From an uncultured Gemmatimonadales bacterium (GTDB taxonomy: Bacteria; Gemmatimonadota; Gemmatimonadetes; Gemmatimonadales; Gemmatimonadaceae), in contig CAWBZV010000003.1 of NCBI GenBank assembly GCA_963793305.1, positions 480,001 to 544,000 of the forward strand: a stretch of 64,000 bases of DNA, read 5' to 3'. A program made the translations under genes and the position numbers. The notes beneath the pieces were generated by a model, which saw only the letters and a program-made list of their open reading frames with translations, did no database searches and was not told where the DNA came from. Shown piece after piece: positions 17,706-41,746 of the stretch. The stretch's first letter is position 1. Each line of letters starts with the position of its first letter.

Positions 17706-17774
17706 CCTAAATCACGGCTCCCGGTCAGAACGACGAGCATGCGAAAGTGGCGCGGCGACGCGGCTCATCCTGGT

Positions 17775-19650: not shown

Positions 19651-19775
19651 CGTGAGGATCAGGATATCGCACCCGCAAGCATCGTGGAATACCGCGGCGG
19701 CGGGATCGCCGATGCTACTCGAAGCCCGCCTGTACGGTCACCGAAGGGGCTCCGTCTTGAAGGTACCATCGTAGG

Positions 19776-21171: not shown

Positions 21172-21306
21172 GGCGGAATGAAGTCTATCGAGTCTGCCCT
21201 CCGCATCACGAGACTCACGGAGCGGATCTCAGACTCGCCTGCGATCGCACAATCTCGCCCATGCCGCTCGTGGGGTGCTCCCGTGAACTGGCCTAGCATT
21301 TCGCCC

Positions 21307-23461: not shown

Positions 23462-23523
23462 CGGCGCCCACTCGCCCATCGAGTCCCTGTTCCCGCACGG
23501 GCTAAGGCGATCGATTGCAGCCA

Positions 23524-24648
23524 ATGGCGTCCATAAGTCTGATCGCTGATCTCCTCAGAACCTGTGCCGATCGACTGCCGGCGGATAGCGAGCCGGATTT
23601 CGAGGAGGTGCGCTCCTCGATGGTCGCGAAATCCAACCTGCTGGCGCTCTATCGCCTCGCGGCGTTGTGTCGCAAACACGGTTATCTCGACCTGTGGCAT
23701 CTCGTCACCAGAAGTGCCCTCGCCATGCCGCATCACGCGTTCGAGCATCTGTACCATCGCGGCAACGCGAAGCTTCTGCTCGATGATTGGTCTGGTTGGG
23801 TCGATCGAGAAGTCCGAGTCCATGATCCCGCGGCTGGATACTTGGCATCCGAATACGTGCGCCAGATCCGCTACAAAACGATCGAATGGGATGGCCAAGA
23901 AATCATCGCAGACAAGACCATCTTGATTCTGGCTGACGGTGATTGTGGTGACTGCATTCAAATGCTCCGTTTCATACCACCACTGGTCGAGCGTTGCCGT
24001 GGTGTCATACTGAGCGTGCGGCCCGAGATGGCCTCATTGGTCAAGCATAACGTTGGCCATCTTGCCTCCATCACGTTCCATGGCATCGACTGCGGCCCTT
24101 TCGAGCGATATGCGTGGTTGATGTCACTGCCCGCTTTGTTCGGCTGTCTGCCGGTATTCACGCCAATGACAGCGCTCAGGCCCAGGACGAGGGCGACGAA
24201 TGCTCGTTACCCCGTCGACATTGGTGTGTGTTGGTCCGAGGGCGGTGATCGCTCAATCGCGCTCGATGAACTTGCGCCACTCTTCGGGCGTCGCGATTGG
24301 CGATGGCATAGCCTTCAACTGGCAGGCGCTGGTGAAGGCGATGGCGACTCCTTTCGCGGGTGTCCGGCGATTCGCCTGCGCACTCTCGCCGATGCCGCGA
24401 ACTACGTGATGGGACTGGACTGTGTCGTGAGTGTCGACGCGGCAGTCGCGCACCTCGCCGGCGCGCTGGGCCTGCCGACGTTGACATTGCTGCGCTCGTC
24501 GGCAGATGCGCGATGGGGGTTGAACGATACCACGCCGTGGTATCCGTCCATGCGGCTGATTCGTCAACGCGCCGCAGGGGATTGGCGAAGCGCCATCCAG
24601 GCACTGGGCGCCGGTATCGAGGCGATCGCGGTCGACCTCGCCGCCTAA
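23524..24648 (+). CDS. TPR/GT9-like glycosyltransferase paralog 5
   Basis: ADGDCGDCIQMLRF, VDAAVAHLAG, TPWYPSMRLIRQ. Confidence 0.8.
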   Translation: MASISLIADLLRTCADRLPADSEPDFEEVRSSMVAKSNLLALYRLAALCRKHGYLDLWHLVTRSALAMPHHAFEHLYHRGNAKLLLDDWSGWVDREVRVHDPAAGYLASEYVRQIRYKTIEWDGQEIIADKTILILADGDCGDCIQMLRFIPPLVERCRGVILSVRPEMASLVKHNVGHLASITFHGIDCGPFERYAWLMSLPALFGCLPVFTPMTALRPRTRATNARYPVDIGVCWSEGGDRSIALDELAPLFGRRDWRWHSLQLAGAGEGDGDSFRGCPAIRLRTLADAANYVMGLDCVVSVDAAVAHLAGALGLPTLTLLRSSADARWGLNDTTPWYPSMRLIRQRAAGDWRSAIQALGAGIEAIAVDLAA

Positions 24649-25787
24649 TGGGTATGCCATCCTCCGCTGGGGTCGTGGAATGGGTCGATGCATGCCGACA
24701 CACTTTCGCCGATCGCGCCGAGGCCTACCGAGTCGCGTTGTACGCGTCACTCGTGGATCCTCAGGGCGATACGCCAATACCTCTGTACCGCCTCGCGAAA
24801 GCCTGCCTGGATAGTGGAGAGTGGTTGCTGTGGCACCAGGGAGTCATGTTCGCGTTCACCCTTGAACACCGAACGGCTCAATCACTCTGCGAGCGAGCGC
24901 TCGCCAAGCTCAGGTTAGGCGACTGGTCCGCATGGCGCGACTATGAGGCTCATGCAAAAAGCCCCGCCTTCAGCGTCGCCCACGCAACGTGGCTTCGCTG
25001 GCGGTACCCGCTATGGGACGGTACCCAGGATATTCGGGATCAAACACTCCTCGTCCAACGGATGGGCGGCTATGGCAATGTGATCTGGTCGCTGCGGTTC
25101 ATTCCACCCATTGCAACACGCGTTCGCCGGCTCATCTGGGATACCAGTCCGGCGCTCATGGATTTTGTGCGATACAACATGAGCCATCTGGCCGCGGTGG
25201 AATCAGTCGATCGCGACCCGCCCGACTTGGACTTCGATTGGCATGTCTGGTGTATGTCGCTTCCGCACGTCAACGGCGGGATACCGCCGTTCGTTCCGCT
25301 CACGGCTCCAGATCCAATCCAATGGCCTCGCTCCCCTGAAAGGCGACTGCGAGTTGGTCTGTGCTGGGCATGCAGCGACGAGGCGCTCGATCAACTGGAG
25401 CGGTCCATTGCATTGAGTTTCTTGGCGCCGCTTTTTTGGCATCCGGGCGTGGAGTGGTACAACCTGCAGGTCGGATCGAGAGCGCACGATAGCGACTACT
25501 ATCCAGGCGTCAAGCAACCACCATTTCCGCTCCGCACATTTGTCGACACCGCGAATTTGCTGGTCGGGTTGGATTGCGTCATCTCGGTGGACACGGCTAT
25601 CTGTCATCTAGCGGGGAGTCTCGGCGTGCCAACGCTGACACTACTCCGCTGTACCGCTGATGCGAAGTGGGGGCATCTCGACACGACGCCTCTCTATCCC
25701 TCCATGCGCTTGATTCGTCAACGGACTCCGGGCGATTGGCTCGGGGTGGCCGAGACCGTGCGTGAGGAACTCAATGCCCGTCTCTGA
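24648..25787 (+). CDS. TPR/GT9-like glycosyltransferase paralog 6
   Basis: TAATG coupling; WDGTQDI, GGYGNVIWSLRF, VDTAICHLAG. Confidence 0.8.
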   Translation: MGMPSSAGVVEWVDACRHTFADRAEAYRVALYASLVDPQGDTPIPLYRLAKACLDSGEWLLWHQGVMFAFTLEHRTAQSLCERALAKLRLGDWSAWRDYEAHAKSPAFSVAHATWLRWRYPLWDGTQDIRDQTLLVQRMGGYGNVIWSLRFIPPIATRVRRLIWDTSPALMDFVRYNMSHLAAVESVDRDPPDLDFDWHVWCMSLPHVNGGIPPFVPLTAPDPIQWPRSPERRLRVGLCWACSDEALDQLERSIALSFLAPLFWHPGVEWYNLQVGSRAHDSDYYPGVKQPPFPLRTFVDTANLLVGLDCVISVDTAICHLAGSLGVPTLTLLRCTADAKWGHLDTTPLYPSMRLIRQRTPGDWLGVAETVREELNARL

Positions 25788-26697
25788 TCCGTACCGACTC
25801 TATCAAGTCGCCGAATCGCATCGAGAGTGCGGCGATGAGGAAAGTTGGAAAGAGATCGTGATGGACGCCTTTCAGCTCCCTCATCGGACCAAGCAACAAC
25901 TCTTCTATCGAGGCCAAGCGAAGATCGCGCTCGGTGATTGGTCTGGTTGGGTCGACCGCGAGGCGCGACTGTTCAACCCCGACGAACAATTGTGGCGTTG
26001 CTCGTACTGGCGCCAGGTACGGGCGAAGACGAAGGCTTGGGATGGCAAAGAGGATATCCGGGACAAGGCACTGTTCGTCATCGCCGATGGAGATGATGGC
26101 GATTGTCTGCAAATGCTCCGATTCATTCCGGATCTCACCGCGAAGGTCGACACGCTCATCCTCGGTGTCAGTCCTGCACTGCTGTCACTCGTGAAGCACT
26201 TTTTCGCCTCAAAGGTGACGGTGACGTTTCGAGAGGTCGATCACGGGCTGCCGTTCCAGCGGTATACATGGATCATGTCGTTACCAGCGCTCTGCGGCGC
26301 ACTTCCGCCGATCGTGCCATTCACCGCGCCCAGACCGCAATCGCCCCCTCGCCTGGCAGATGGGCGTTTTCACGTCGGCCTGTGGACAGCGCCAGAATCT
26401 GTTCCTCCTGCGACACTCGCCGGCATAACAAGCGCACTGGCACGTGACGACATCCAATGGCACGACCTGCGACTGGGCACCGGCGCCATCCGAACGTATG
26501 CTGATGCCGCGAACGTTATCGTGGGCCTGGACTACGTGGTGAGTATCGACTCGCCAATTGCCCATCTCGCGGGTTTGCTCGCGGTGCCGACGCTCGTGTT
26601 TCTCAGCTGCCGAGCTGATCTCCGGTGGGGATTGACCGAGACAACGCCATGGTATCCCTCGATGCACATCACCCGACACTTTGGAGACTCCGTATGA
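25774..26697 (+). CDS. TPR/GT9-like glycosyltransferase paralog 7
   Basis: WDGKEDI, ADGDDGDCLQMLRF, IDSPIAHLAG, TPWYPSMH. Confidence 0.75.
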   Translation: MPVSDPYRLYQVAESHRECGDEESWKEIVMDAFQLPHRTKQQLFYRGQAKIALGDWSGWVDREARLFNPDEQLWRCSYWRQVRAKTKAWDGKEDIRDKALFVIADGDDGDCLQMLRFIPDLTAKVDTLILGVSPALLSLVKHFFASKVTVTFREVDHGLPFQRYTWIMSLPALCGALPPIVPFTAPRPQSPPRLADGRFHVGLWTAPESVPPATLAGITSALARDDIQWHDLRLGTGAIRTYADAANVIVGLDYVVSIDSPIAHLAGLLAVPTLVFLSCRADLRWGLTETTPWYPSMHITRHFGDSV

Positions 26698-26822
26698 CAA
26701 CCGCGTATCGAAAGCCGACGATCCTCTGCCTTGGCGCCGCCGAGGTCTTGACTCGTGGAGGGTTCGGAAACAGGCCCGAACTCCGCACAGGTCCAACTAG
26801 CATCTCCCTGCTCGATCTCTGA
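26694..26822 (+). CDS. Lasso peptide precursor A0: MTTAYRKPTILCLGAAEVLTR|GGFGNRPELRTGPTSISLLDL
   Basis: GGAG RBS, ATGA overlap with the GT7 stop; Y-17/P-14/G-8/T-2 leader; core G1..E8; homologous to the 32.5-33.2 kb array. Confidence 0.88.
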   Translation: MTTAYRKPTILCLGAAEVLTRGGFGNRPELRTGPTSISLLDL

Positions 26823-26831
26823 GGCAGGTAC

Positions 26832-27992
26832 ATGCCATCGAGCGAACAGCTCCTCGATGAGTGTATTCGTCGGTTGAGTCCAAGCAATGCGGCGGCGCTA
26901 CTGCCACGGTTCCGATCGGCATTCGAGCGGTATCCCATCGCGCCGCCGCTCCTGTATAGCATCGCGACCCTGTGCCTGCAGTTCGGATACGAGGAGTTGT
27001 GGGAGCACTACGATCGTCTCGCCTTTGCCCTGCCTCACGCCACCAACGAGGATTTTTATTTTCGATCCGTGGCGAAGCTTCGTCGGAGCGACTGGTCCGG
27101 GTGGTTGGACCGAGAAGCCAGGCTCATCAGCCCGCATGAAGCGCCGATCTGGTACCCGCACTTCCTCGAAATGCAATGGACGACGCGCGCCTGGGACGGT
27201 GTAGAACCGATTCAGGATAAAACACTGTTGGCGATCGCCAATGGCGGGTTCGGCGACTGCTTGCAGATGATACGGTATATGCCGCGTCTGGCGGCAATAG
27301 CTGGTTCGCTCATCATCGCGGTGCGGCCGCAAATCCTCTCGTTGGTCGAGCACAATTTCGGGCGGATCGCCACGGTCGTGTCGACAGAGCGCTTACCATT
27401 GATACCCTTTCAGCGGTACGTGTGGATGATGTCCCTTCCCGCATTGATCGGATCCATACCGGCCTTCGACGCGCTCAGGACTCCCAGCGCGACTCCGGCC
27501 GCTCCGCGTGAGGGCCGGTTGCGAGTCGGTCTCAATTGGGCCGGCACTTCACATCATCCGAACGATCGCGACGACAACCTCCGCTCCATCACACTCGACG
27601 ACCTCTCACCGCTGCTGGAGCTCGAGTGGGTCACATGGTATAGCGTGCAAGTTGGGCGGTGGGCCTCCGACGCCGATCACAATGCCCGCATCGTGCAACC
27701 CTCGACGCCGATCCGAAGTTTTGAAGATTCCGCCAATCTCGTCGCTGCTCTAGACTGCGTCGTGACGATCGACACGGCGGTTGCGCATTTGGCCGGCAGC
27801 CTCAATGTACCAACGTTAGTACTCCTGACATGGCTGCCGGAATTTCGCTGGGGTCTCGTCAGCGAGCGTACGCCATGGTACCCAAGCCTTCTGTTGATCC
27901 GACAAACGTCGCCCGGCGACTGGCCTGGCGTGTTCGATCGAACCTTCCAGCATCTGCGGGCGCTTTATACCGGGGCAGCTGCTTCAGCGTAA
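26832..27992 (+). CDS. TPR/GT9-like glycosyltransferase paralog 8
   Basis: ANGGFGDCLQMIRY, RVGLNWAG, IDTAVAHLAG, TPWYPSLLLIRQ. Confidence 0.8.
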   Translation: MPSSEQLLDECIRRLSPSNAAALLPRFRSAFERYPIAPPLLYSIATLCLQFGYEELWEHYDRLAFALPHATNEDFYFRSVAKLRRSDWSGWLDREARLISPHEAPIWYPHFLEMQWTTRAWDGVEPIQDKTLLAIANGGFGDCLQMIRYMPRLAAIAGSLIIAVRPQILSLVEHNFGRIATVVSTERLPLIPFQRYVWMMSLPALIGSIPAFDALRTPSATPAAPREGRLRVGLNWAGTSHHPNDRDDNLRSITLDDLSPLLELEWVTWYSVQVGRWASDADHNARIVQPSTPIRSFEDSANLVAALDCVVTIDTAVAHLAGSLNVPTLVLLTWLPEFRWGLVSERTPWYPSLLLIRQTSPGDWPGVFDRTFQHLRALYTGAAASA

Positions 27993-29105
27993 GTCTCATC
28001 GAGCAGCGTATTCACCTGAGCGATCGAGCTCGACCAGTCGCCTGGTGCGCATTGCCGAATGAGCCGCATCGCGGGATACCACGGCGTGACGTCCCCTAGT
28101 CCCCACCGCCAGTGGGAATCGTATTGCAAGAGCAGCCATGTTGGAACGCCGAGATTCCCCGCCAGAATGACACACTGAGGTGTCCACGCTGACCACGTAG
28201 TCCAGTTCCGTGATCAGGTCCGCCGTGTCGCCGTAAGTGACGAGTGGCGGATCAGGATTGATCAATGCGGGGTAATCGTTGGCGTCCGCGACGCGATCGC
28301 CGACTTGGAGGCTGTACCATTCCACGTCATCTCGTGCGAGCAACGGCACCGTCTCGGCGATAGGCATTGACCGATCTGGATCCTGCGTGAAGTCGGGACT
28401 GCCGGCCCAGCAGACGCCGGCCCGGATGGGTCGCGTCCGTGGCGGCATTTTGGGACGCCGTCGTGGTGCGGCAAGCGCGGTGAAATCGGGAAGCCGGCCG
28501 AACGTACCTGGCAGCGACATGCTCCACACATACCGGTCGAACGGTATCGTGGGTTTGATCCCATCCAGCCATATTTTGGCGAGTGAGCCGAAGTTGAATC
28601 GAGCGAGAGGGGCCAATCGCGGATACACCATCATGAAGACGGCGCTGGCTATTTCGGTCAACGGCGGAATGAATCGCCACATCTGGAGGCAATCGCCGTA
28701 TCCCTGCTCCGGCAGCACCAGGATAGACTTGTCCGCGAGATCCTCCTTGCCGTCCCACATGCAATGCTTCCAGCAGATATCTCGATATTTGTCCAGATCT
28801 TCGATGGTGTCCGGCGCCCCCAGGCGCGCGCTGTACTCAGCCCATCCGTTCCACTCGCCGCGCTCGATCTTGGCCAGGGCGCGCGCGTAGGTCTGTTGTG
28901 GTGTCACGTGGGGTAGCGCCAGCGCGAGATCGACCTGGTGCTGCCAATCGGGATCGCCTCGCCGTCGAAGCGTGAACGCGAGGAGATAGCGCGGCATGGG
29001 GTTGGCCGGCTGCTGCTCGGCGACGGTTGTCAATTCTTCCGCCGTATAAATGGTGCGGGGGCAACGTCGGTGTGTCGGCACCGGTTCGGAGGTCGGCGCC
29101 GTCAT
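27965..29105 (-). CDS. TPR/GT9-like glycosyltransferase paralog 9 (frameshift at about 28167)
   Basis: Best-conserved EQGYGDCLQMWRF; GVCWAGSP; VDTSVCH then HWRWGL..TPWYPAMRLIRQ in the adjacent frame. Confidence 0.8.
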
Positions 29106-29449
29106 GGTTCGGCGTGACCAGAGGCGACGTTGGGCTCGGTTTCCAGCAATCCGTATTCGCTGAGCGCGGTGACGATCGTCAACACATCGCGTTGCACTTG
29201 CCCCGGCGCGACATCCACGGGCATGGCGTATTCGGCTTCGATCGTCGCGACGATTGATCGTATCGTCGCGCCGCCTTCCAGCAATTCCCAAATGCGGCTG
29301 CCAATGTCATTGAGCCGGTAATTTGCGTGAGTTTGAAGATTGTGAACCACGGTATCGGTATCACCTGGCGCGGCCACCGCATATGCGGAAACCGTGACAC
29401 CGCTGTTGATATCGAGTCGTGCGCGTGTCGTACCTTCAAGCTCGCTCAT
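29102..29449 (-). CDS. PqqD-family RRE coupled to GT paralog 9
   Basis: NYRLNDIGSRIWELLE...IVATIEAEY..DVLTIVTALSEYGLL; ATGA overlap with the GT gene. Confidence 0.8.
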   Translation of the reverse strand: MSELEGTTRARLDINSGVTVSAYAVAAPGDTDTVVHNLQTHANYRLNDIGSRIWELLEGGATIRSIVATIEAEYAMPVDVAPGQVQRDVLTIVTALSEYGLLETEPNVASGHAEP

Positions 29450-29787
29450 GGTCGCGTCCTCGATGCCCGGGTGTGCGAATTGGTGCTCGGCATTCACGCG
29501 ACAGATTCTAAGAGTCACGGGCGAGACGCCTGAACCCCGCCCACAGGCGAATCACTTCCGCCGCTGGCGGATTCGGTGATCGACGCATTGGCGTGTGCCC
29601 CACCTGCCCGGCATCGCAGTCATTTGCTGATTCCAGCACGTCAGTGTTACGCGACGACGTATCACACTGATGGCACGCGACATAGGCGCTGCATCCGCCG
29701 CATATCTCAGCAACCCGCCTTCCAAGCGCTGGGTCTCGTGTTCCAGGCCCCGTAGAGTGTTTCTGCGTACACACGCGGAGTCGCCCA

Positions 29788-30099
29788 GTGTTGTTCACCC
29801 AGCGACCCCAACCAGTGTCTCCGACGGACGCGCGGCGATATCGCGCGATCCCTGGAGTGCTGTCGGGGTGCTTTGAGGAAGAAACCTTCCTGTTGAGTCT
29901 CGCGACAGGTCGGTACTACAAGCTCGACAACGTCGGAACTGAGGTGTGGCAGCTGCTGCGCCAACCGAAGGCGTTTCCCGACATCGTGAGCGACTTGGGG
30001 CAGGTCTATGACATCGCTCCGTCGACGCTAGCGGCGGATGTCGCTGAGCTCATGAACCGCCTCCTTGGCTACAGGGTCATCGAGGTCATCAACTCATGA
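29788..30099 (+). CDS. Lasso peptide B1 protein (RRE, PqqD family)
   Basis: LLSLATGRYYKLDNVGTEVWQLL...YDI...LAADV; directly upstream of B2 and C. Confidence 0.9.
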   Translation: MLFTQRPQPVSPTDARRYRAIPGVLSGCFEEETFLLSLATGRYYKLDNVGTEVWQLLRQPKAFPDIVSDLGQVYDIAPSTLAADVAELMNRLLGYRVIEVINS

Positions 30100-30479
30100 C
30101 ACTACCGAGTGTGATGCACTGTTTCGGACGAATGCTGGCCATAAAAGTGTCGCTCAAAACTCGCGGCTTGGGCGCGACGCTCTCGCGGTACTGCCAATCG
30201 CCGACGGACGTTCGTCGCGACGACTCGATCAGCGATGACCTCGTCGACCAAGTGGCGTTTCAGGTCGCCGGCGCCGCCGCGCTGTTTCCGGGGCGCGCCC
30301 TCTGTCTCGAGCAAACGCTCGTACTGCATGGAGAGTTGCTGCGCATCGGTGTCGACTCTCGGATCCGGTTCGCTGTCACGCCGTATCCATTCAAAGCGCA
30401 CGCGTGGATCGAAGTGCGAGGTCGTCCGATCAATGAGAATCTGCATTGGCTCAGCCAGATGACACTTCTCGAGACTTAA
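30096..30479 (+). CDS. Lasso peptide B2 leader peptidase (transglutaminase-like)
   Basis: ALCLEQTL (catalytic Cys) and PFKAHAWIE (His) motifs. Confidence 0.9.
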   Translation: MTLPSVMHCFGRMLAIKVSLKTRGLGATLSRYCQSPTDVRRDDSISDDLVDQVAFQVAGAAALFPGRALCLEQTLVLHGELLRIGVDSRIRFAVTPYPFKAHAWIEVRGRPINENLHWLSQMTLLET

Positions 30480-30484
30480 TCACC

Positions 30485-32299
30485 GTGGATACCTTCGTCT
30501 GCCTGATGAATACGCGTGGCCACGGTGTCGTCCCCGAGTCACGTCGGCGGTACGGGCTCGATGACACCGGCTGGCAGTCAGCTGGACCATGCAGCATGTA
30601 TGTCTCAAATGATGGATACGGTCCCGTGGCATCGATCTATCGCGGATCGATTGGCATCGCCGCAGGCATCATCCGCCTCGACAACCGCGTCGAGATCCGG
30701 CGCCAACTTCGGGCAAGCGACGACCAGTCCGATATCGCGTTGGTCGCCGCCGTGCTGCATCGCCGAGGCGTCGACGGCGTGCAGGAGCTCGTGGGCGATT
30801 TTGCGCTGGCGTATTGGGACGTTGCGCGGTCGGAATTGATCATCGCGCGGGACTTCATCGGAGTTCGCCCGCTTTATCGCGTACAGGACGGTGATCTGTG
30901 GGGGTTCGCCTCCCACGCGGGCGTTCTTGGCCGGGGACGGGAGCTGTCGCTCGAATTCGTCGCGGACTACATCGCGTTCAATGTGTCGAGACAGCGCACA
31001 CCATATGCCGGCGTGTTTGCCGTCCCTGCCGGAACCGCCCAGGTGCTCAACGGTCGGCGGAGCACCGAGCATCGGTATTGGTCCGCCTATCGGTTCTCGA
31101 CCGATGATCGGATCGACAGCAACGAGGCGGTCGAAGCGTTCAGGCCTTTATTCACCGAAGCGATTCGGCTGCGTCTGACCGGAAAGCAGGACTGCTGGGC
31201 AGATCTCTCTGGTGGTCTCGATTCGTCATCGGTTGTCTCGATGAGTCAGTGGCTCGCGAAGCACGACGGCGCCGTGCACGGCTTGGCGGGAACCTTGACG
31301 TACGCAGACACGCTCGGCACTGGCGACGAGCGGCCGTACGCGAACGCGGTGATTCGCGATTGGCCTCTGCCGAATGAACAATTGATCGACTACGGATTGT
31401 GGCAGGACGACGGCGAGCCGCCCCTTGTCGCGGATATTCCGGACCAGTCGTCCGCGTCGTACGCTCGAGAGCGGCGAGTCTGTCGGATCGTTCGGTCAGC
31501 GGGCGGCCGCGTGCTATTCACCGGAGTGGGCCCCGATCAAATGCTCTTCGGCAACTATGTGTATTTCGCTGATTGGCTCGTGCGGGGGCGAATTCGCGAG
31601 GCGGCTCGGGGGATGTTTCGACTCGCCGCGCTGGGCAGAGGGTCATTCTGGAAATTCGCGTATGAGAACGCCATCAGGCCGTTCTTTGGATCGCCGGCGC
31701 TGAAACGTGAAGCGTGGCCGGCATGGGTTCGGCCCGAGTTCGCACGTCGATTCGCGATCCACGAACGCAATCCAATGGCGTGGACCCCTCGCGGCCGACC
31801 GGGCCGCTACTTTGCCACGGACCTTGCGGGCAACATCGACATCATCACACATGCGATGATCCGCGGCGTGGTCGGTGATATGCTCGACATCCGGAGTCCC
31901 TTCCTGCATCGCCCGCTGGTCGAGCTCTGTCTGCAACTCTCTCCGCAGGTGCTGGCGAGGCCGCGGGACCAGAAGTGGGTCCTCCGCCAAGCGATGCGAG
32001 GCATCACGCCGGAAGAGGTGCTGGAGAGAAGGACGAAGGGGTTCGTCGACGCGAGAATGCAACGATCGTTTGTCGATGAGCACGATCGACTGAATGTGTT
32101 GCTGGATCATTCGGTACTCGCCGAAATGGGTTGCATTGACGCGCGGCTCGCCAAACAATCATTGGCGAACGTGAAGAGCACGACCCTGGGCGAGAATGGG
32201 CGATTACGACATGCACTGACGCTTGAGACGTGGTTGACGGCGAGATCGGGCCGATGGATCGCACGTGATGTGGCACGGCCGGCGTCTGCGGTGGCATGA
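30485..32299 (+). CDS. Lasso cyclase (asparagine synthetase-like, C protein)
   Basis: GDFALAYWD, ARDFIGVRPLY, DLSGGLDSSSV, RSPFLHRPLVE, KWVLRQAM; no N-terminal catalytic Cys. Confidence 0.92.
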   Translation: MDTFVCLMNTRGHGVVPESRRRYGLDDTGWQSAGPCSMYVSNDGYGPVASIYRGSIGIAAGIIRLDNRVEIRRQLRASDDQSDIALVAAVLHRRGVDGVQELVGDFALAYWDVARSELIIARDFIGVRPLYRVQDGDLWGFASHAGVLGRGRELSLEFVADYIAFNVSRQRTPYAGVFAVPAGTAQVLNGRRSTEHRYWSAYRFSTDDRIDSNEAVEAFRPLFTEAIRLRLTGKQDCWADLSGGLDSSSVVSMSQWLAKHDGAVHGLAGTLTYADTLGTGDERPYANAVIRDWPLPNEQLIDYGLWQDDGEPPLVADIPDQSSASYARERRVCRIVRSAGGRVLFTGVGPDQMLFGNYVYFADWLVRGRIREAARGMFRLAALGRGSFWKFAYENAIRPFFGSPALKREAWPAWVRPEFARRFAIHERNPMAWTPRGRPGRYFATDLAGNIDIITHAMIRGVVGDMLDIRSPFLHRPLVELCLQLSPQVLARPRDQKWVLRQAMRGITPEEVLERRTKGFVDARMQRSFVDEHDRLNVLLDHSVLAEMGCIDARLAKQSLANVKSTTLGENGRLRHALTLETWLTARSGRWIARDVARPASAVA

Positions 32300-32488: not shown

Positions 32489-32620
32489 ATGGCCAAGACC
32501 TATCGCACACCGAGTGTTGTGACACTTGGTAACGCCGAAGTTCTGACGACCGGCTCCCCGAAGGGGAACCACGCCGAGGTGAGGACTGGCTCGACCTCGA
32601 TCACCATGCTGGACCTCTAA
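32489..32620 (+). CDS. Lasso precursor A1: MAKTYRTPSVVTLGNAEVLTT|GSPKGNHAEVRTGSTSITMLDL
   Basis: AGGAG RBS; canonical leader; core G1..E9. Confidence 0.92.
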   Translation: MAKTYRTPSVVTLGNAEVLTTGSPKGNHAEVRTGSTSITMLDL

Positions 32621-32647
32621 CCACTTCTTGACTTAACGGAGACTACA

Positions 32648-32782
32648 ATGACCAAGACCTATCGCACGCCCAGTGTCGTGACACTTGGTAACGCCGAAGT
32701 GTTGACGACCGGCGCACCGAAGCCGTGGAATCACGCCGAGGTGAAGACTGGCTCGACCTCGATCACGTTGCTCGACCTCTAA
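32648..32782 (+). CDS. Lasso precursor A2: MTKTYRTPSVVTLGNAEVLTT|GAPKPWNHAEVKTGSTSITLLDL
   Basis: GGAG RBS; manual translation; leader near-identical to A1; Glu at core position 10. Confidence 0.92.
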   Translation: MTKTYRTPSVVTLGNAEVLTTGAPKPWNHAEVKTGSTSITLLDL

Positions 32783-32899
32783 GAACTTCACCGCAATGCT
32801 CGTAGCACGGCACTAGTGAGACACTGGCGACCATTGGCCCGATCTCCAGCGTTCTCATCGCCCCGACCCCGATCGCGTTCCTGAATCCTTAGCTACTTC

Positions 32900-33028
32900 T
32901 TGACCTTTCGCCCGCCGAGCGCCGTGACACTTGGTAGCGCCGCAGTACTGACGACCGGCATCAACAAGCCGTGGAACGCGAACGAGCCACACGTCGGCTC
33001 GACCTCGATCACCTTGCTCGACCTCTAA
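32900..33028 (+). CDS. Lasso precursor A3 (TTG start, possibly silent): (M)TFRPPSAVTLGSAAVLTT|GINKPWNANEPHVGSTSITLLDL
   Basis: Manual translation; in-frame stop at 32882 upstream; no RBS; Tyr-17 replaced by Phe. Confidence 0.7.
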   Translation: MTFRPPSAVTLGSAAVLTTGINKPWNANEPHVGSTSITLLDL

Positions 33029-33036
33029 GTACCACC

Positions 33037-33169
33037 GTGACCAAGATCTATCGCACACCGCGCGTCATCGCGCTTGGACCCGCCGATCAGCTGACGACTG
33101 GTCTCGTATGCTCGTCCAATAGATACGAGACCATCGGCTCGAACGTCCATCGCGTTGCTCGATCTCTGA
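33037..33169 (+). CDS. Lasso precursor A4 (1-nt insertion at 33142/3): MTKIYRTPRVIALGPADQLTT|GLVCSSNRYETIGSTSIALLDL
   Basis: GTG start; deleting one A from tcgAacgtcc restores STSIALLDL-TGA, ending flush against the convergent peptidase stop. Confidence 0.78.
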
Positions 33170-35314
33170 CTACCGCTTCTCCGCCTCTCCCGCGCGTAAG
33201 TAGGTGTCGAACCACGCCAAGCGTCGTCGCCACACATCGCGAACGTTCGCGGGAGATGTGATGGCGTGACCCTCTCCCCAGTACCGCACGAACTCGACAC
33301 GTTTCCCCTGGCGAGCGAGCGACGAGAACATCTCCTCCCCTTGTTGGATCGAAACGAAATCCATATCGCCCTGAACGATCATCACTGGCGTATCGATCCG
33401 ATCGACGTAGTTGATGGGATTGTTCCTCGCATAACGCAATGCATTCTCCCATGGCGGCCCACCCATTCGAGTCTGGCCTGATTCTCCACCGGGCAGGCCA
33501 CCAATCCAATCTCCAGTGGCGGCGTCTCGGTAACGGCGAAAGGTGGAGAAAGCACCGAATTCCGATATGAGGTCCGACGGAGCACACTCGGCGATGGCGG
33601 CTTTGAACCGATGGGTGAATTCGATGATCCCATACGTGCTATACCCGCCATAGCTACACCCTTCGATTCCAATCCGATCAGGATCGGCGTATCCCATCTC
33701 GATCGTCTTATCCACCGCGGGTAATACGCCCTTCGGCAGATCGATGAAATTGTCACCGGGCTGTGTCCTGTCGCCGACGAACGGCATGCTCGGATACAGG
33801 ACAAGATAGCCAGCACCCGTCCAGAGTGCGTCCTCCAGACTCGGGTTGGTATCCGCCGCGCTTTGTACGCTTCCGTCGTATACGATCGTCACCATGGGAT
33901 ACCGTCGGCCGGCGACGTATCCAACTGGCAGCTGGAGCGTTGCCGTTAACGAATCGCCCTCCATTCCAAGATATCGGAGCGCGATCTTTCGGCCACGATC
34001 GATTTGCTCGGCGCCAGCATTGAGCGTGAGCACGGTATCGCGCTCGTGCAGCACCAAGTCAACTCGACCATCCGGTCGTGCCTGAACTGCAAGCGGTAGC
34101 GGCTTCCGACCTTCGATCGCGGACGGCGTCGCCTCGATCGGCGTTAATACGGCGTCTCCGTGCGCGCTGATCCGATACCACCGGTCGTCCTTCGGCACAT
34201 TGCGCTGCACGTGAACCACTACGGATCGTCCATTGGTTGCCCACACGGGCCGCGCGGGCCCAAAGTTGAATATCTGACTTTCCATGCCGCCGACAACGGC
34301 GTCGAGTGAGCCGGTTGAATCGACCCCCACCCAACTCGGTGACGTGGCACGGTCGAGCGGGATAATCGCTATGCGAAACCCGGGAATGTATTCTCCATAG
34401 AGTGCGGACGTACCCTTCCACTCGGATATCGGCACGGGGACGACAATCGCAAGGGTATGACCGTCCGGAGACACGGCGCCGACGGACGGCCAGTAGTCCG
34501 GAACGTGCCGGTAGTCACCGATGGGAATGGGTGCGAGCGCGGTGCTCGTGTGCGACCTGACGTTGACCAGGGTGAGCTTCAAAGGCGCAAACGATAGCGG
34601 CGGCGCGCCCGGTCCCGCGTCGAGTACGCTGGCAGTCGATACCGTGCCACGTTCCTGCAGTGGCCAGGCGCGTTCGGTGATCCGCTGGGGTTCGGTCGTT
34701 TCGTGATACCACTCGCCGGTCGCGCCAGCAGGAAGCGCGGCGAAAATCAATGTGCTGTCGCTCAGCCACCGGCAGTGGGCGAACGTTGCGCCCTGGACGC
34801 CATCGTACAGCCCACGCTCGTATTGCGCCAACTGCAGCCTGACCTGCTGATCCACGCCTTGTTGCGTCGACAGTTCGAGCCGATCGCGCTGTCGGTCCCA
34901 GACATAGAGGTGAACGTTCTCCCCTCCCTTGCTGGAAAGCATCGCCAGTCGGCGGCCATCGGGCGACCAAACCGGATCCCAGTACCCACTGGCGTCGGAT
35001 TTACCTTGCGTGAGATTCCGGCGCACCTGTCCGGTCGAGGAGAATACCCACACGTCGGACCGCTCGTGCTCCATGCCGGTGTATCGCTCTCCTGGTGTCG
35101 CGGGTCGATCGATCGTGACCGCCACCCAAGCGCTATCTGGGGACGCGGTGACCTGTCGCGGAGCGGGAATCAGCGTGAGCAGATCATTGACCACTGCCGG
35201 TCGCTTGTTCGCGTGAGTGACATTGACAGAACGTGCGACGTGGTTTACTTGCGCTCGAGCCCAGCCCAAGACGAAGAATTGCAATGCGCACGCGAGGGTC
35301 ACCAATTTAAGCAT
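33170..35314 (-). CDS. Secreted S9-family peptidase, putative lasso isopeptidase
   Basis: Signal peptide; WSPDG propeller repeats; GCSYGG, VQGDMDFV, YWGEGH catalytic triad. Confidence 0.85.
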   Translation of the reverse strand: MLKLVTLACALQFFVLGWARAQVNHVARSVNVTHANKRPAVVNDLLTLIPAPRQVTASPDSAWVAVTIDRPATPGERYTGMEHERSDVWVFSSTGQVRRNLTQGKSDASGYWDPVWSPDGRRLAMLSSKGGENVHLYVWDRQRDRLELSTQQGVDQQVRLQLAQYERGLYDGVQGATFAHCRWLSDSTLIFAALPAGATGEWYHETTEPQRITERAWPLQERGTVSTASVLDAGPGAPPLSFAPLKLTLVNVRSHTSTALAPIPIGDYRHVPDYWPSVGAVSPDGHTLAIVVPVPISEWKGTSALYGEYIPGFRIAIIPLDRATSPSWVGVDSTGSLDAVVGGMESQIFNFGPARPVWATNGRSVVVHVQRNVPKDDRWYRISAHGDAVLTPIEATPSAIEGRKPLPLAVQARPDGRVDLVLHERDTVLTLNAGAEQIDRGRKIALRYLGMEGDSLTATLQLPVGYVAGRRYPMVTIVYDGSVQSAADTNPSLEDALWTGAGYLVLYPSMPFVGDRTQPGDNFIDLPKGVLPAVDKTIEMGYADPDRIGIEGCSYGGYSTYGIIEFTHRFKAAIAECAPSDLISEFGAFSTFRRYRDAATGDWIGGLPGGESGQTRMGGPPWENALRYARNNPINYVDRIDTPVMIVQGDMDFVSIQQGEEMFSSLARQGKRVEFVRYWGEGHAITSPANVRDVWRRRLAWFDTYLRAGEAEKR

Positions 35315-36593
35315 TTGAGTCAATGCACCCGTGGTAGTTCGGATTATACTGATCGCCAGCGACGGGAAAGACGACGCTCGAGCCGTACATGGCCGGGCCA
35401 CCCCGATAGGGTCCCATGGGGAACACCGAGTTCGCGCTCAGGCCGTACTGACGAACGAGACGACGCAAATCACCCTGGCGATGGCCCGTTCCGAACAACC
35501 AAAAAGCTCGCTCGCGGAACATGACGGACAGTTGCATGCTCGCCGACGCCGTGGTCGTCGAATCGGACGTGAGTGTGTCCATGGCCGGTGTTATCGCATT
35601 CTGCCGAAGCGAGTTCAAGATTCCCGACCACGTAGAGACTTGGCCGCCCTTGAGCGCCGCCTCCGCTATCAACAGCTGGGCTTCAATGCCGCTCGCCATG
35701 GTCAATGACGAGGCGCCGGTTGTCACCAACCCATCGGCGTACGTCGTGGTGCCAGAGCCCGAAACGGCGAGAATAGGGAGTCGTGGGTCGCCCGCGCTGA
35801 CGAACGGCAACCCATTCTCACCTTCGCGATCGGACACCGAAACGATCGGGTTCGCGATCGTATTGTTGTAGATCGCGTTGATGTCGGTCGCGCCATCCAA
35901 CTCGGCCGTGTAGACAAAGCCGAGCGACACGTTGGCGACGGCGGCGGCGGCGGCGGTGAAATCGCCGCTATCCGCATAGGCTCGCCCACGCAGAACGGCA
36001 ATCAAGGCGGCGATGGAATCACTGCCAGTCGTGGAGGTCGCCGCGGAATCCAGATCCTCGAGCGCCTGGGTGAGTAATTGCTGGCGGTTGAACACGGGAC
36101 CGTAGCTCGGCGTCGACCCGTCGACGATCGCGAGTGACACTCCAGAGCAGAGGTTCTCGGCAAACTCGAGCTCCACGGCCGCGCTCAGCGCGCGCAATTC
36201 GCCAATGTGCCACACTGGCTCTGGGGCATACTGGCGCAGCGTGGCAATAGCCGCGAGCGCGTTGACTCGCCCACTGCTCAAGTTACCGAACGGGAACCCC
36301 CCGGGATTGCCGAGCGATAAGACCCGCTGATCTTCAGGGAGATTGCCGACTTCTGATTGGGTCGCGACGGTGAACTCGTCAGCCAAAAGGCCGGTGTGGA
36401 ACGACTGGGACGAGAACGCGTTGAAGAGTGTACCCAGCGCACCCGCCCTGAGAGCGGCGGCGCCCGACGCGTTTTGAAGACCACCCTGTGTGATGACCGA
36501 GGGGTCTTGTACGCGGGTTAGGTCGCAAGCGGTAGTCGAGACGAGCAATGCCGGTAGAAAAGCCGCCGCGATTGCGCGCACGAATCGAATCAT
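35307..36593 (-). CDS. SusD/RagB-like lipoprotein
   Basis: Lipobox TTAC, GLLADE, EAQLLIAEA, FRERAFWLFGTGHRQGDLRR. Confidence 0.8.
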   Translation of the reverse strand: MIRFVRAIAAAFLPALLVSTTACDLTRVQDPSVITQGGLQNASGAAALRAGALGTLFNAFSSQSFHTGLLADEFTVATQSEVGNLPEDQRVLSLGNPGGFPFGNLSSGRVNALAAIATLRQYAPEPVWHIGELRALSAAVELEFAENLCSGVSLAIVDGSTPSYGPVFNRQQLLTQALEDLDSAATSTTGSDSIAALIAVLRGRAYADSGDFTAAAAAVANVSLGFVYTAELDGATDINAIYNNTIANPIVSVSDREGENGLPFVSAGDPRLPILAVSGSGTTTYADGLVTTGASSLTMASGIEAQLLIAEAALKGGQVSTWSGILNSLRQNAITPAMDTLTSDSTTTASASMQLSVMFRERAFWLFGTGHRQGDLRRLVRQYGLSANSVFPMGPYRGGPAMYGSSVVFPVAGDQYNPNYHGCIDSNA

Positions 36594-36615
36594 GGCAGGA
36601 CACCTCACGAGTGAG

Positions 36616-39600
36616 TCAGAAGCTGAGATTGATGCGTGCGAGCCAATACTGGGCGGGCGGCAACCCTCCACCTGCGAAGTAGGTGTTGTTGACCGGCCCG
36701 GATGGGCTAGGTGCCGTTTCGGGATCGCCGCCGTTGAAGTGACTCCAAATGGCGATGTTGCGGGCCGACAAGGTCACGCTCATCGATCGCGCCCTGAACG
36801 CTCGCGCCACCGCGTCCGGAGCCGCATACGTGAGAGAGAGCTCGCGGAACCGAATAAATGCTCCGTCCGAGATGACACCGCGATTGGTAAACGCGGTGCC
36901 ATTGTACGCGACACACACTGCTTGGTCGGCGAGCGACGCCTGCCTGCTCACGGTCGCGAACGCGGTGCCCAGGGCGCATTGTGCAGCGAGCGCTTGGTTC
37001 GGAATGACGAATTGCCCACGATAGTCGAAGAGCGCGCCCACCCGAACGCGATTGCCGAATAGCCCGACATGCGTTCCAGCCGTGACCTGAACCGGCGGTA
37101 TGGTGGGCCCATAAAAGCGCTCACCGCTGGCGATCGTGAGTTCATTCGGCTCGATAATTCCATTCCCATTCGCGTCGCGGTACGTGTACGGCTGGGCGAA
37201 CATCGAATAGATGGGGTATCCGGCCACGATACTTGGGGCGCCACCCTGGCCATAGATCGGCTGAAAGTATGGGCCCAACGTCACCACTTGATTGTGGTTG
37301 ACCGACCCATTGAGGCTCACGTCCCAGGACAGCGGGCGCGTATCCAGCATGACCGCGGAGAGCTGCGCCTCGTATCCCCAATTGAGGACGGTCCCCACAT
37401 TCTCCAGAATGGAGGCCACGCTGCCCAGCGACGATCCGAGCGGGGCATTGTACAAGGCGTTGACGTTCCGCTTCCGGTAGTACGTGAATTCCATGTGCAC
37501 GCGGCTATCCGCCATGTCGAGATCGGCGCCCGCCTCGAGCTCCTTCTGTCGCTCGGGTTGCACGTGAGGGTTCGCGAGTGATGACAACGTCATTCCGGGT
37601 TGCAGCGCGCCGTCAATCGTAACGGGCACGGACGAATACGTCGTCAGCACTTGGCCGGGTTGCGTCCCGGACTCGCCGTATGCTGCCCGGAGTCGAAGGA
37701 GGCTGAGCCAGCTCGGATGTGGGAAGAAATGCTCGCGAGAGATCAGCCACGATACGCTGCCCTTGGGATAGGCGGCCGACCTGAAATCGTGGCCGAAGTC
37801 ATTCGCGCCGTCAACGCGAACCGCGCCGGTCAAGAACAACCGGTCATCCCACGCGAACTCCTCCTCGGCATACACCCCAGCCACCACGCCCTCGCTGTCG
37901 ACCTGCGCGCCCTGCGATACGCCGCCGCCAACAAAGCTCGAACCCGTGGTCAAGTTCGACGCCGTTGCGGTCGCGGTCTTCGTCTCCGCGCGATGATATT
38001 GTGCGCCGACTGATGTGTTGGACACCAAGGACGAAAACAGCGGCGCCCGCGCCGTGCCGCCAACGTCAACGCTGTAAATGTTCGTTGTTCCCCGAGCATC
38101 GATGATGTTTCCGCCATTGACGAAGGTGATCGGAGCGGCGGCGGGGGGAATGAACTGGGAGAAGCCGCTTGCCGACTCGTCAATGCCCGCGGTGAGGCGT
38201 CCGGTAAACCATGAGGTCGGCAGCCAATGCGCTGTGCCCGACCCAGTGAAATGCTGGTTGGTCTCATTCTCGATGGATCCGAAGAATGAGCCTGGGGTCG
38301 CGCCGAAAAGCCAATCGGCGGACGGATCCCGATATCCCACACCACCGGCCCAATTCTGAATCGCGCCGCTATAGGGGATGGATCCGGATTCCGATAGGTA
38401 GCTGCCCGAGACGGAGACATCGCCACTGCGTCCGAGAGGCGCAGAGAGATTCACGCGCCCGTCGTATTTGCTTATGCCATTCGGGTGGCGCACGTTGCCG
38501 GCGCCGGCGGCTGGACCGACCAACGAGTCCAGTGTGTGTTGGTCGTATGCGTCATCCTTTAGATACCCGATCTCGGACGTGTAATTGCCGGATACGAAGT
38601 ACCGAATGTTGGAACCACCGCCAGAGACCTGCACACCGACGTCGGCTCGATTGCCAGTTCCAAGCGGAGTCAATCCGGGATCACGCAGCGGATTGAACTT
38701 GGTGATGCTGTCCTGGGTGCATGCCTGGGCGGCAATCGCGGCCAGCGTGCAGGAGTTGGTCACTTGACCAGCACTTTGACCCCAGCCGCTGTAGTTGTAC
38801 CCGAATTGATCCGGATCGATGGTCAACGCACCGCCTTCAACATGCATGCTCCACCGCGGTGCGCCCGAGACTCCTTGCTTGGTCGTGACGACAATAACGC
38901 CATTCGCCGCGTCCGTCCCGTACAGCGTAGCCGCCGACGGGCCTTTAACGATCTCGATGGATTGAATCTCATCCATTGATAAGTCATTGAACCGACCACT
39001 CGATTCTTCGTATCCGGCAGGGCCCGCGGTTGAGTTCGCGACGCGAACGCCATCGATGTACAACAGCGGCTGCACTGATAGCGTCAGGGATCCAGGCCCG
39101 CGGATGTAGATGTACGGAGATGCACCGGTCAGACCGCCGGGATTGATGACTTGCACACCCGGTGCGCGGGCGTTGATGATATCGCTCAACGACGTAACCG
39201 GAGTGTTTGGAACAATCGAATCAGCGTTGATCGTGGCAATCGTATTTCCGATCGTGCTCAGTCGCTGATTGCCCGTTACGGTTGTTACCACCTGATCGAG
39301 TACCGTGGGCACCGGCACCAGCGCGATGTCTCGCGTGTACACACCCGCCGATGGCGTTACCTGCACCGTGGTCACAGCGTATCCGAGTCGTCTGACGACC
39401 AGCGTGTACGTACCAGCCGTCAGGCCGTTGATTGTATATGCGCCGTCGGGTCCAGTGATGGCCCCCTTTCCGGCCACGCGGACCGTCGCATCGGTCACCG
39501 GTTTGTGGGTGGACGAATCCGAGATCGTGCCACGCACGACGACGGTGTCTCTCGATTGCGACCGAGCGGTGAGACGGTCGCGAGCAACGAGCGTTGCCTG

Positions 39601-39979
39601 ACCGTACGGAGCTATCTCGACATCGACATCCGCGTCGAGCAAGATCTGTGTAAGCGCCGCGGCGACGGTAATGTCCGATGCGTTCGAGCCTCACCGTGGC
39701 GCCGGCAGGGAGGATCGACGGCTTGTAGGTGAACCGCAGTGAGGTCTGTTCTTGGATCGCCGTCAACGCCTCGGGAATCGTGGCGTTGTGCAGACGAAGC
39801 ACAAGCCGCTCTCGCAGCGCCGCAAAACTTCCAGCTTCGGCACGTTCAATGTGGGTGCCGACAATCGCGTAGAATGCCGGTTCTCGTGAGGCCAGGTGTA
39901 GTGGCTGGGGCCCTTGCGCGCCCGCGCCGCTACAGAGAATGACTCCGACACTGATGCCGCAGACGACGCCGCGCATCAT
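36616..39979 (-). CDS. SusC/RagA-like TonB-dependent transporter with N-terminal signalling domain (frameshift at about 39690)
   Basis: IEIVKGPSAATLYGTDAANGVIVVTTK, LRLRAAYGESG, terminal Phe. Confidence 0.9.
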
Positions 39980-39982
39980 GCA

Positions 39983-40990
39983 TTACCTCCTGGAGACAAG
40001 AGTCACAGTTTGCCCTGAGCGGACGACGCTCGCATCGAGCGCCCGAGCGATGACATCGAGGGCTACGTCCGCTGGGATATCGCTAATCGTCACCGTCAGT
40101 CGATCGTCAGCGAGTTTCGCGCTGCCGAGATGCACATCGATGTCGTACCAACGGTCGAGCTCAGGGATGACCTCGCGCATCGGCGCGTTCACGAACGTGA
40201 GATTCCCCTGCGACCAGGCCAGGTATCGGTCGACCGCCACGCCTTGTGTGACTCGAGCGGCACCGGTCGAGTCGACGACACCAAGGGCGCCCCGCGTCAG
40301 AATGACGGGCTTGGTGCCCTGTATCGATACCGACCCGTCCGCGACGACGACGCGCACGGTTTTGTCATAGGCCCGCACATCGAACTGCGTGCCGATGTCC
40401 TCAACGGTCGTGCCGCTGGGAGCAGTGACACGAAACGGTTGCGTGGGATCATGCGTCACGCTGAACACCGCCTCGCCGCTGAGATAGATGTGCCGCCCCA
40501 CCGCAGCAACGCGGATTTCCGTTCCCGGGGCGAGAGTCACCCGTGTGCCGTCGCGCAATTCCACCGTCGCGCGCTCGCCGCGTGCCGTGACGTAGGTGGC
40601 GCGAATCGCGGGCGCCTCTGCGCGAGTGGTCGGCGACGGTCGCAGCGCATGCCACGAGGCGTATGCCGTCCCAGCGATGAGAAGCACCGCTGCCGCCCAA
40701 CCCACGAGCGGGCTCACTCCGCGCGATCTCGGCGTTGGTGGGATCAACGTTAGCGGTTCGTGACGGCGATCGACCCCGAGTCGCCCAGCCAAAGCGCGCC
40801 AGGCCTGATCGGTGTCCGCGGGCGCGTTTGCTTGGGACGAGGCGCGTCGTGAGGAGCGCATGACTTCGACAATCGCCGTCAACGTCGGAGATGCTTGGAT
40901 GCGTCGTCGCATCATCTCACGCTCGCCCGGCGTACCCTCGCCGCTGACATATCGATCGAGCGCTACCCAATCGATGTCGCCGTCCCTCAT
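39983..40990 (-). CDS. FecR-family anti-sigma factor
   Basis: LRDGTRVTLAPGT, LSGEAVFSVTHD, DIGTQFDV, LDRWYDI. Confidence 0.9.
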   Translation of the reverse strand: MRDGDIDWVALDRYVSGEGTPGEREMMRRRIQASPTLTAIVEVMRSSRRASSQANAPADTDQAWRALAGRLGVDRRHEPLTLIPPTPRSRGVSPLVGWAAAVLLIAGTAYASWHALRPSPTTRAEAPAIRATYVTARGERATVELRDGTRVTLAPGTEIRVAAVGRHIYLSGEAVFSVTHDPTQPFRVTAPSGTTVEDIGTQFDVRAYDKTVRVVVADGSVSIQGTKPVILTRGALGVVDSTGAARVTQGVAVDRYLAWSQGNLTFVNAPMREVIPELDRWYDIDVHLGSAKLADDRLTVTISDIPADVALDVIARALDASVVRSGQTVTLVSRR

Positions 40991-41161
40991 CAGGCGATCG
41001 CCCAGGGTGTCATGGCACAGCTACACGCGCCTCGCTCAAGTCCCGACCGCTGTAGCACTGGTGGTGCAGAAGTGTTGCCAAACACCAGTTGCTTTTTTCG
41101 CGGACGCGAAGTCGCACGGTCTTGACAGGCTGACGCGAATACGTCACCATGGGCGACACAC

Positions 41162-41746
41162 ATGTCCGCCCCACGCCAGCTAGTAGGATCTGACCAGTCC
41201 GAGAATGAACAAGTCGCCCGCATTCGGGCGGGTGACGTGCTGGCGTTCGAATCACTCTTCAGGGCGTACTATCCCGACCTCCGTACCTTCGTCGACACAT
41301 ACGTCGATCGCGCAACAAGCGAGGAAGTGATCCAGGAGCTCTTTCTCGCGCTGTGGCGGCGGCGGGAAGCGTGGATTCCGGCAGGTGGCGTCCGCGCGTA
41401 TTTGTTCGCGGCAGCACGCAATCAGGCGCTCAACGCGATTCGTCAGCGAAAAAGCGCTTCACGCGTTGTGGAAGAATGTGCCGCGGATGGATCCATCCCC
41501 GGGACGAATCAATCCGATCGGAATCCCGCGCAGCAGCTCTCGACGAACGAGATCGAGTCCGCCTGTCGCGAAGCGATCCACCATCTGCCAGAGTCAAATC
41601 GTCTGGTGATGATGCTCCGCTGGGACTACGGAATGAGCCACGCCGAGATCGCGTTCGTCCTCGGCACGTCCATTAAAGGAGTAGAGGCGGAACTGGGCCG
41701 CGGCCTCAAGACACTCGGCACTCGACTGAGCTGGATTCGCGCGTAG
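41162..41746 (+). CDS. ECF sigma-70 factor (FecI-like)
   Basis: AFESLFRAYY, EEVIQELFLALW, region-4 GMSHAEIA; divergent from fecR. Confidence 0.9.
   Translation: MSAPRQLVGSDQSENEQVARIRAGDVLAFESLFRAYYPDLRTFVDTYVDRATSEEVIQELFLALWRRREAWIPAGGVRAYLFAAARNQALNAIRQRKSASRVVEECAADGSIPGTNQSDRNPAQQLSTNEIESACREAIHHLPESNRLVMMLRWDYGMSHAEIAFVLGTSIKGVEAELGRGLKTLGTRLSWIRA

Follow-up and report, generated by a model that had tools for sequence, protein, structure and literature searches.

The window, by which we mean the whole 64,000-nucleotide stretch of DNA that was analysed (G+C content 64%), contains what is, by its gene content, a complete lasso-peptide cluster. Three of its genes encode biosynthetic proteins on the plus strand. 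The first, B1 (29788..30099), is a leader-binding PqqD/RRE protein that matches Pfam PF05402 with 55.4 bits against a cut-off of 23.4, and among NCBIfam models it matches the lasso PqqD model best, with a score below the cut-off of that model. The second, B2 (30096..30479), is a transglutaminase-like leader peptidase (NCBIfam NF033537, 53.1 bits, cut-off 33) that keeps Cys70 and His102, both of them invariant across 40 aligned B2 sequences, and that carries Thr74, Leu82 and Ala93 where 67-68 of the 70 related sequences aligned have Ser, Arg and Gly. The third, C (30446..32299), is an asparagine-synthetase-like lasso cyclase (PF00733) with an SGGLDSS motif; its best NCBIfam match is NF033535, at 173.7 bits under the cut-off of 525, and among solved structures it matched asparagine-synthetase relatives only. 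Relatives of C adjoin B2 and precursor genes, and the nearest named ones belong to Gemmatimonadota, which is accordingly the likely phylum of the host. Private changes in C number 8 of 142, as against 2-8 in sister cyclases, and C is, judging by these counts, not visibly decayed.

Adjoining the cluster on the minus strand is the gene for an S9 peptidase (33170..35401; PF00326) that is a candidate lasso isopeptidase, and the region 35307..41746 encodes, according to domain searches, a SusD-like protein, a TonB-dependent receptor (36616-39642, minus strand; PF00593 and PF07715) and a FecR protein, all on the minus strand, together with an ECF sigma factor on the plus strand. Astexin-type clusters (those with the isopeptidase AtxE2) likewise have an S9 peptidase and a TonB receptor beside tandem precursors; FecR and the ECF sigma factor are also found here. 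The present cluster differs from that type in its split B1 and B2, in its glycosyltransferase-like array and in its peptidase, which scores 86 bits against NF033523 (far below the cut-off of 400) and is closer to general S9 peptidases; AtxE2 was matched with an E of 8e-8, tenth among solved structures and below those general enzymes. The array, delineated by tblastn, consists of eight related glycosyltransferase-9-like (GT9-like) genes at 16572..29291, and short PF01075 matches were obtained for four of the six GT9-like genes scanned, two of them above the cut-off. (A ninth GT9-like gene, which is split, lies at 2272-3244, outside the main array.) A second PqqD/RRE protein is encoded on the minus strand at 29102..29518 (PF05402, 50.9 bits), and a third PqqD-like match lies at 19776-20078.

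Open reading frames and their alignment revealed five paralogous precursor genes, A0 to A4, in this one cluster, all on the plus strand. The leader features YxxP at -17/-14, Gly at -8 and Thr at -2 are present in all five copies (with Phe for Tyr in A3), and under this register each core starts with Gly. The only Asp or Glu upstream of the penultimate residue is then Glu8 in A0, Glu9 in A1 and Glu10 in A2, A3 and A4, exactly as the earlier note had assigned them, such that A0 and A1 have an acceptor at core positions 7-9 whereas A2-A4, in the usual register, do not. A0 (26694..26822) sits within the GT9-like array and its leader ends in Leu-Thr-Arg; the leaders of A1-A4 end in Leu-Thr-Thr. All five precursors share an Asn-x-x-Glu motif. 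Because A0-A3 align on this motif with exactly 13 residues following the Glu in each, the difference in length must lie inside the ring, where the alignment attributes it to whole-codon insertions or deletions.

The copies differ in their state of preservation. A1 (32489..32620) is intact, and its sequence also occurs in a second, short contig. A2 (32648..32782; 44 amino acids) is likewise intact, with Gly1 at 32711, the Glu10 codon at 32738-32740 and a predicted 10-residue ring. The ribosome-site-like sequence CGGAGA lies 5 nt upstream of its start, the identical protein occurs in three sources, and comparison with A1 over the 34 codons outside the indel gave 8 synonymous and 2 non-synonymous differences (pN/pS 0.09). 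A3 (32900..33028) lacks 26 nt relative to A2, namely the stretch with the ribosome-binding site and the ATG, which leaves TTG as its only start; its pN/pS is 0.68-0.80 against A1 and A2, its exact sequence had no match in the protein collection, and it is likely silent or decaying. A4 (33037..33169) starts with GTG, lacks a clear ribosome site and has an additional A at 33142-33143 by which the family tail is thrown out of frame; it is either a pseudogene or an assembly error. The latter is conceivable because two other genes of the window, at 10731 and 11835, are interrupted by +1 insertions when compared with a close relative, and the several split genes make indel errors in the assembly likely. 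Contigs from three DNA sequencing runs spanned neither A3 nor the additional A of A4. (The genes split by frameshifts, at 10731, 11835, ~18370-18686 and ~28160, encode a peptidase, a ROK protein, an ABC transporter and one GT9-like protein.) Thus, what had been noted as three precursors with Glu10 comes down to one clearly intact gene, A2, and two doubtful ones, although in all three the sole usable acid is indeed at position 10. Note that a contig from run X1 with unlike flanks overlaps 32472-32850 at a depth of ~9 and represents a sister precursor locus of another organism. A scan for promoters and terminators gave no signal above chance.

We searched 1.84 billion representative sequences with a profile built from A0-A4 and obtained 16 matches: A0 itself, a 2712-aa repeat protein that was dropped, and 14 relatives. 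A second profile search returned 27 proteins, of which 3 were self matches, 13 had already been seen and 11 were new, bringing the outside relatives to 25 (a longer-called copy of A1 was excluded). All 25 end in Leu-Asp-Leu or Leu-Asp-Phe, and we refer to them and A0-A4 as the Leu-Asp-Leu family. Other searches had smaller yields: A2 as a single sequence retrieved A1 and A2 only, a search with A2 of the genomes of 100 relatives gave no credible match, the precursor profile gave one weak match (E 6e-4, with no lasso genes at its locus) in 400 genomes of the taxonomic family, and the ESM Atlas offered, as a lead only, a lasso-leader cluster at 0.87 besides three clusters without a name at 0.90-0.92.

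The leader features listed above recur in 25/25 relatives, including Thr-2, which is followed at -1 by any of ten different residues; 23 have Gly and 2 have Ala as core residue 1. Position 8 holds the conserved Glu in 2 relatives, position 9 in 17 and position 10 in 6, and precursors with Glu7 only or with Glu11 were absent among the 25. (Three further cluster members that were read had Glu9 each.) Five of the six relatives with Glu10, two of which are close kin, have no acid at positions 7-9, and their residue at -1 is Phe, Leu, His, Ser or Asn; the sixth has a Thr-Thr leader and Asp7 besides Glu10. Since the tail after the Glu varies from 12 to 19 residues and the standard deviation of the Glu position is 0.54 from the N-terminus as compared with 2.58 from the C-terminus, the Glu is fixed relative to the N-terminus and not the C-terminus. 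Note that the search profile included the Glu column, so that conservation of the Glu is partly built in, which does not hold for where the Glu stands with respect to the leader; the profile also exaggerates the outcome of a shuffle test (25/25, as compared with an average of 5.0), on which we place little reliance. The placement of Glu at position 10 is not due to chance, given the tandem and nearby paralogs beside B1, B2 and C and the 25 outside relatives.

Eleven cyclases that are 47-73% identical to C form with it a clade of 12 (support 100/100). Only three columns hold residues diagnostic of this clade, too few to interpret. Seven of the eleven can be paired with family precursors by equal contig size and source, which is circumstantial evidence, and other precursors may share those contigs. 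Among these pairs, the Glu10 precursors P0143 and P0130 go with the cyclases P0005 and P0007, respectively, and no other precursor was found for those contig sizes. Because P0005 and P0007 branch early, on opposite sides of the basal split of the clade, Glu10 is either old or has arisen three times. A precursor tree built without the ring columns (26 columns, with little signal) requires ~7 changes to account for the 8 Glu10 rows, A2 and A3 included, and rejects a single Glu10 clade (AU p 6e-5); with the ring columns included, 4 changes suffice. Cyclases more than 43% identical to C were not found in samples of the class, family and order (400, 400 and 390 genomes), in three metagenome and genome scans (the latter two of which took in 6 of the 64 parts) or among plasmids.

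The reading that we favour, with a probability of roughly 55%, is that A2 is cut at the canonical site and cyclised into a predicted Gly1-Glu10 macrolactam, so that a single cyclase would close rings of 8, 9 and 10 residues. As in known lasso biosynthesis, B1 would bind the YxxP leader, B2 would cut immediately ahead of Gly1, with the conserved Thr at -2, and C would adenylate the Glu and form the isopeptide bond to the new N-terminus. We propose further that cyclases of this clade have a native ring of 9 residues and accept rings larger or smaller by one residue, a tolerance that FusC shows in vitro, and that in-frame indels between Gly1 and the Asn-x-x-Glu motif switch the ring size among 8, 9 and 10. 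The ordinary cut is favoured because Thr-2 is fixed, -1 is free and Gly1 is fixed, which leaves no need for a shift at a Thr-Thr doublet. With a 10-residue macrolactam (32 ring atoms by our own count), the Leu-Asp-Leu family would likely have a ring one residue larger than that of any structurally characterised natural lasso peptide. Evidence against this reading is that 9 is the most common position in the family, that no outgroup precursor has its acid at 10 alone (0/60, below) and that two of the three local Glu10 genes look damaged. The possibility of such a ring, first raised from the sequence of the window, is nevertheless, on comparative grounds, better supported than the single locus suggested, since Glu10 recurs across the family without Thr-Thr: six of the 25 relatives have it, five of them with neither an acid at 7-9 nor a second Thr. 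Its novelty is lessened in that a 10-residue ring has already been made by engineering.

It is also conceivable that the cut is canonical and that cores with Glu10 are cyclised barely or not at all, being drifting duplicates in a cluster whose actual products are the 8-residue ring of A0 and the 9-residue ring of A1. The damaged appearance of A3 and A4 would fit such drift, as would the prevalence of Glu9 (17/25) and the finding that P0137, which has Glu10, is on a contig of the same size as a Glu9 precursor. Moreover, production usually falls sharply when the ring is made larger or smaller by one residue, according to the available part of a 2026 review (PMC13352647). A2, however, has kept its ribosome site and bears the mark of purifying selection, several lineages carry Glu10 while Glu7-only and Glu11 forms are missing from the 25, and a Glu10 ring with Lys4-Pro5 recurs beside cyclases that are 50-60% identical. 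We consider failure to cyclise unlikely, though by no means negligible.

As a control, we read the precursors encoded beside more distant cyclases (~31-43% identical), which gave 54 loci and 62 distinct candidates, from a sample that comprised the 16 closest of 160 scan loci and included 3 candidates from the same genome and 1 from the unpublished genome G217. An acid at 7-9 was present in 60 of the 62, and the remaining 2, with an acid neither there nor at 10, lie inside the cyclase gene; an acid only at 10 was thus found in 0/60 credible control precursors. Under a second filter (76 partly redundant loci, 59 candidates), the acid was at 8 in 49, at 9 in 9 and only at 10 in none, with 1 false candidate. 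The outgroup counts thus show the usual register to work in the phylum and make position 10 a peculiarity of the Leu-Asp-Leu family. These results bear on the idea that the cut lies one residue further on in the entire family (leaving Thr at -3 and Gly at -1), or that Gly1 is trimmed, which would yield ordinary rings of 7, 8 and 9 residues. Subtracting one from 8, 9 and 10 does give the known range, with 2, 17 and 6 relatives at 7, 8 and 9 and a mode of 8 as in the outgroup (49/59), and outgroup cores open with 13 different residues. B2 departs from its relatives at three otherwise conserved sites, an S9 peptidase adjoins the cluster, and leader spacing is one residue shorter in some outgroup clusters. 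But a later cut would put ten different residues at -2, the recognition position that is occupied by Thr, rarely by Ile or Val, in the lasso leaders described in the available part of PMC10368454. In addition, Thr-x-Gly is the commonest pattern in the outgroup too (Gly1 in 30/58), and no credible outgroup leader is one residue longer than Y-17. The ring of A0 equals an outgroup Glu8 ring in the usual register at 7 of 8 positions (5 of the 6 inner positions; p ~0.002), which ties the family to that register. A cut displaced throughout the family, or a trimmed Gly1, is therefore quite improbable.

A narrower version, put forward in the earlier note, confines the displaced cut to A1-A4, where the Thr-Thr doublet would allow B2 to act one residue further on and rings of 8 and 9 residues would result. 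All of A1-A4 do end in Thr-Thr, the shift would bring all five rings to 8 or 9, and a Tyr-Thr spacing shorter by one is found in some outgroup clusters. The family did not bear this out: only 3 of 25 relatives have a Thr-Thr leader end and two of those three have Glu9, which argues that the doublet reflects common descent rather than the size of the ring, the second Thr is absent from five of the six outside Glu10 precursors, and Gly1 is conserved throughout. We regard a shift confined to A1-A4 as very unlikely. (Four credible outgroup leaders with Thr-Thr have the second Thr at the Y-17 spacing; they cannot separate recognition of spacing from recognition of the last Thr, and were not counted.) Least likely of all is the use of another acceptor, such as the penultimate Asp of Leu-Asp-Leu, which A0-A3 share with every one of the 25 relatives and which could close an unthreaded macrocycle of large size or add a second cross-link, but which lies 20 to 27 residues from the N-terminus where the Glu stays at 8-10, and lasso cyclases, in the available text of PMC12480086, are mostly specific for one acceptor.

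Of the known systems, fusilassin (fuscanodin), made by FusB, FusC and FusE, is among the closest in kind: B1 and B2 are split as they are here, the native acceptor is Glu9, and the cyclase spans rings of 7-10 residues. The primary paper on its ring variants is reportedly that of DiCaprio and dates from 2019. The 10-residue ring of fusilassin was engineered in vitro, whereas Glu10 is here naturally encoded and recurs across a family. Citations of that engineered ring appear in the accessible portions of PMC8498205 and bioRxiv 10.1101/2020.11.25.399105, and the review mentioned above, as far as it was available (PMC13352647), states both that the fusilassin enzymes accept rings of 7-10 residues and that the caulosegnin enzymes natively make 8 and 9. 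Caulosegnins I-III of Caulobacter segnis resemble the present case in that several precursors share one enzyme set; the range here would be 8, 9 and 10, with a different leader and core family and likely in another phylum. The same review lists rings of 7, 8 and 9 amino acids only among structurally characterised natural lasso peptides (PMC13352647), which agrees with the range given in the earlier note for characterised rings, engineered fusilassin having reached 10. A literature search, in which subscription papers were thinly covered and supplements (a possible place for predicted position-10 acceptors) were outside the scope, found no report of a natural 10-residue lasso ring, and literature listings contained no characterised lasso peptide from the Leu-Asp-Leu family. 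The accessible parts of PMC12480086, PMC13632552, PMC11371967, 10.64898/2026.03.30.715466 and 10.64898/2026.10.14.759041 hold nothing on a 10-residue ring, and the 'unprecedented ring' of metanodin refers, in the text available of PMC12670498, to Asn1 and not to an enlarged ring.

A ring of 7-9 residues belongs to the working definition of natural lasso peptides in the available review text (PMC13352647) and is built into prediction tools; LassoPred, as described in the part available of PMC12214591, accepts an acceptor at 7-9 only. A natural family with 10-residue rings, if real, would therefore be missed or mis-annotated by tools with that limit, and peptide engineering would gain a wider scaffold from a cyclase that natively closes such rings, although the engineered fusilassin ring tempers the surprise. 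With precursors that are nearly identical but have their Glu at 8, 9 or 10, the one cluster also offers a ready-made series on the limits of ring size and the retention of the tail.

Whether a 10-residue ring would hold its tail is a separate matter. Tails free of Phe, Trp and Tyr occur in 7 of 8 Glu10 sequences, 9 of 18 Glu9 sequences and all of A0-A3, and threading is doubtful because the tail of A2 has none of these residues. In the available part of PMC13352647, locks tend to be bulky aromatics, one added ring atom caused a lihuanodin variant to unthread, and threaded peptides are the only substrates of isopeptidases. Rings with Glu10 contain less Gly than those with Glu9 (0.06 vs 0.19) and are richer in Pro and Lys/Arg, albeit in few and related sequences, a composition that might narrow the ring opening. 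We put the odds that the predicted ring of A2 stays threaded at about even, and hold it rather doubtful that a natural 10-residue ring is stably threaded by any means.

Sugars are a possible lock for the Glu10 peptides, by analogy with two known cases. Pseudomycoidin, in the portion available of PMC6993621, has a 9-residue ring with no bulky lock in the tail and is unthreaded unless Phe is inserted, and the authors propose sugars as the lock; in davasins, according to the available text of PMC11912497, a Ser is glycosylated after ring closure. These systems use a kinase and PsmN, and IgtG, respectively, with no 10-residue ring reported, whereas here the proteins are GT9-like and their link to the peptide is putative. 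One tail Thr is invariant in the family, and GT9-like genes flank A0; a GT9-like match was found in only 2 of the loci examined, most of which are short, and one of the two is the window itself. The combined proposal, in which one cyclase would make rings of 8, 9 and 10 residues and the oversized ones would be threaded without aromatic plugs through sugars that GT9-like enzymes add to the invariant Ser/Thr stretch of the tail, is in our estimation improbable.

The end of the tail is itself distinctive. The C-terminal Leu-Asp-Leu (32771-32779 in A2), invariant in the family, is preceded by a conserved Ser/Thr stretch, and the outgroup families have a conserved Gly-x-Val-Gly-Phe/Tyr-x-Leu end in its place. 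Leu-Asp-Leu and the Ser/Thr stretch together are likely a recognition tag, which might be read by a receptor, a peptidase or a tailoring enzyme. Two of the Glu10 relatives, P0137 and P0138, have Cys-x-Cys within the predicted ring.

The chromosomal site of the window recurs in a relative (L042:8065-15514), where the flanks are 73-83% identical and the lasso cassette is a different one, consisting of B1, one GT9-like gene between B1 and B2, B2, C and five precursors, and followed by an S9 peptidase and a TonB receptor. The precursors of that cassette have leaders shorter by one residue and an acid at 9. This arrangement suggests that cassettes have been exchanged at the site and that GT9-like genes are genuinely associated with lasso clusters. 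Two other clusters lie in the same genome as the window: one at C3:763726-767200 has three precursors with Asp8, and in the one at C5:654692-657200 the cyclase is split and the precursor, with Glu8, has a shorter leader.
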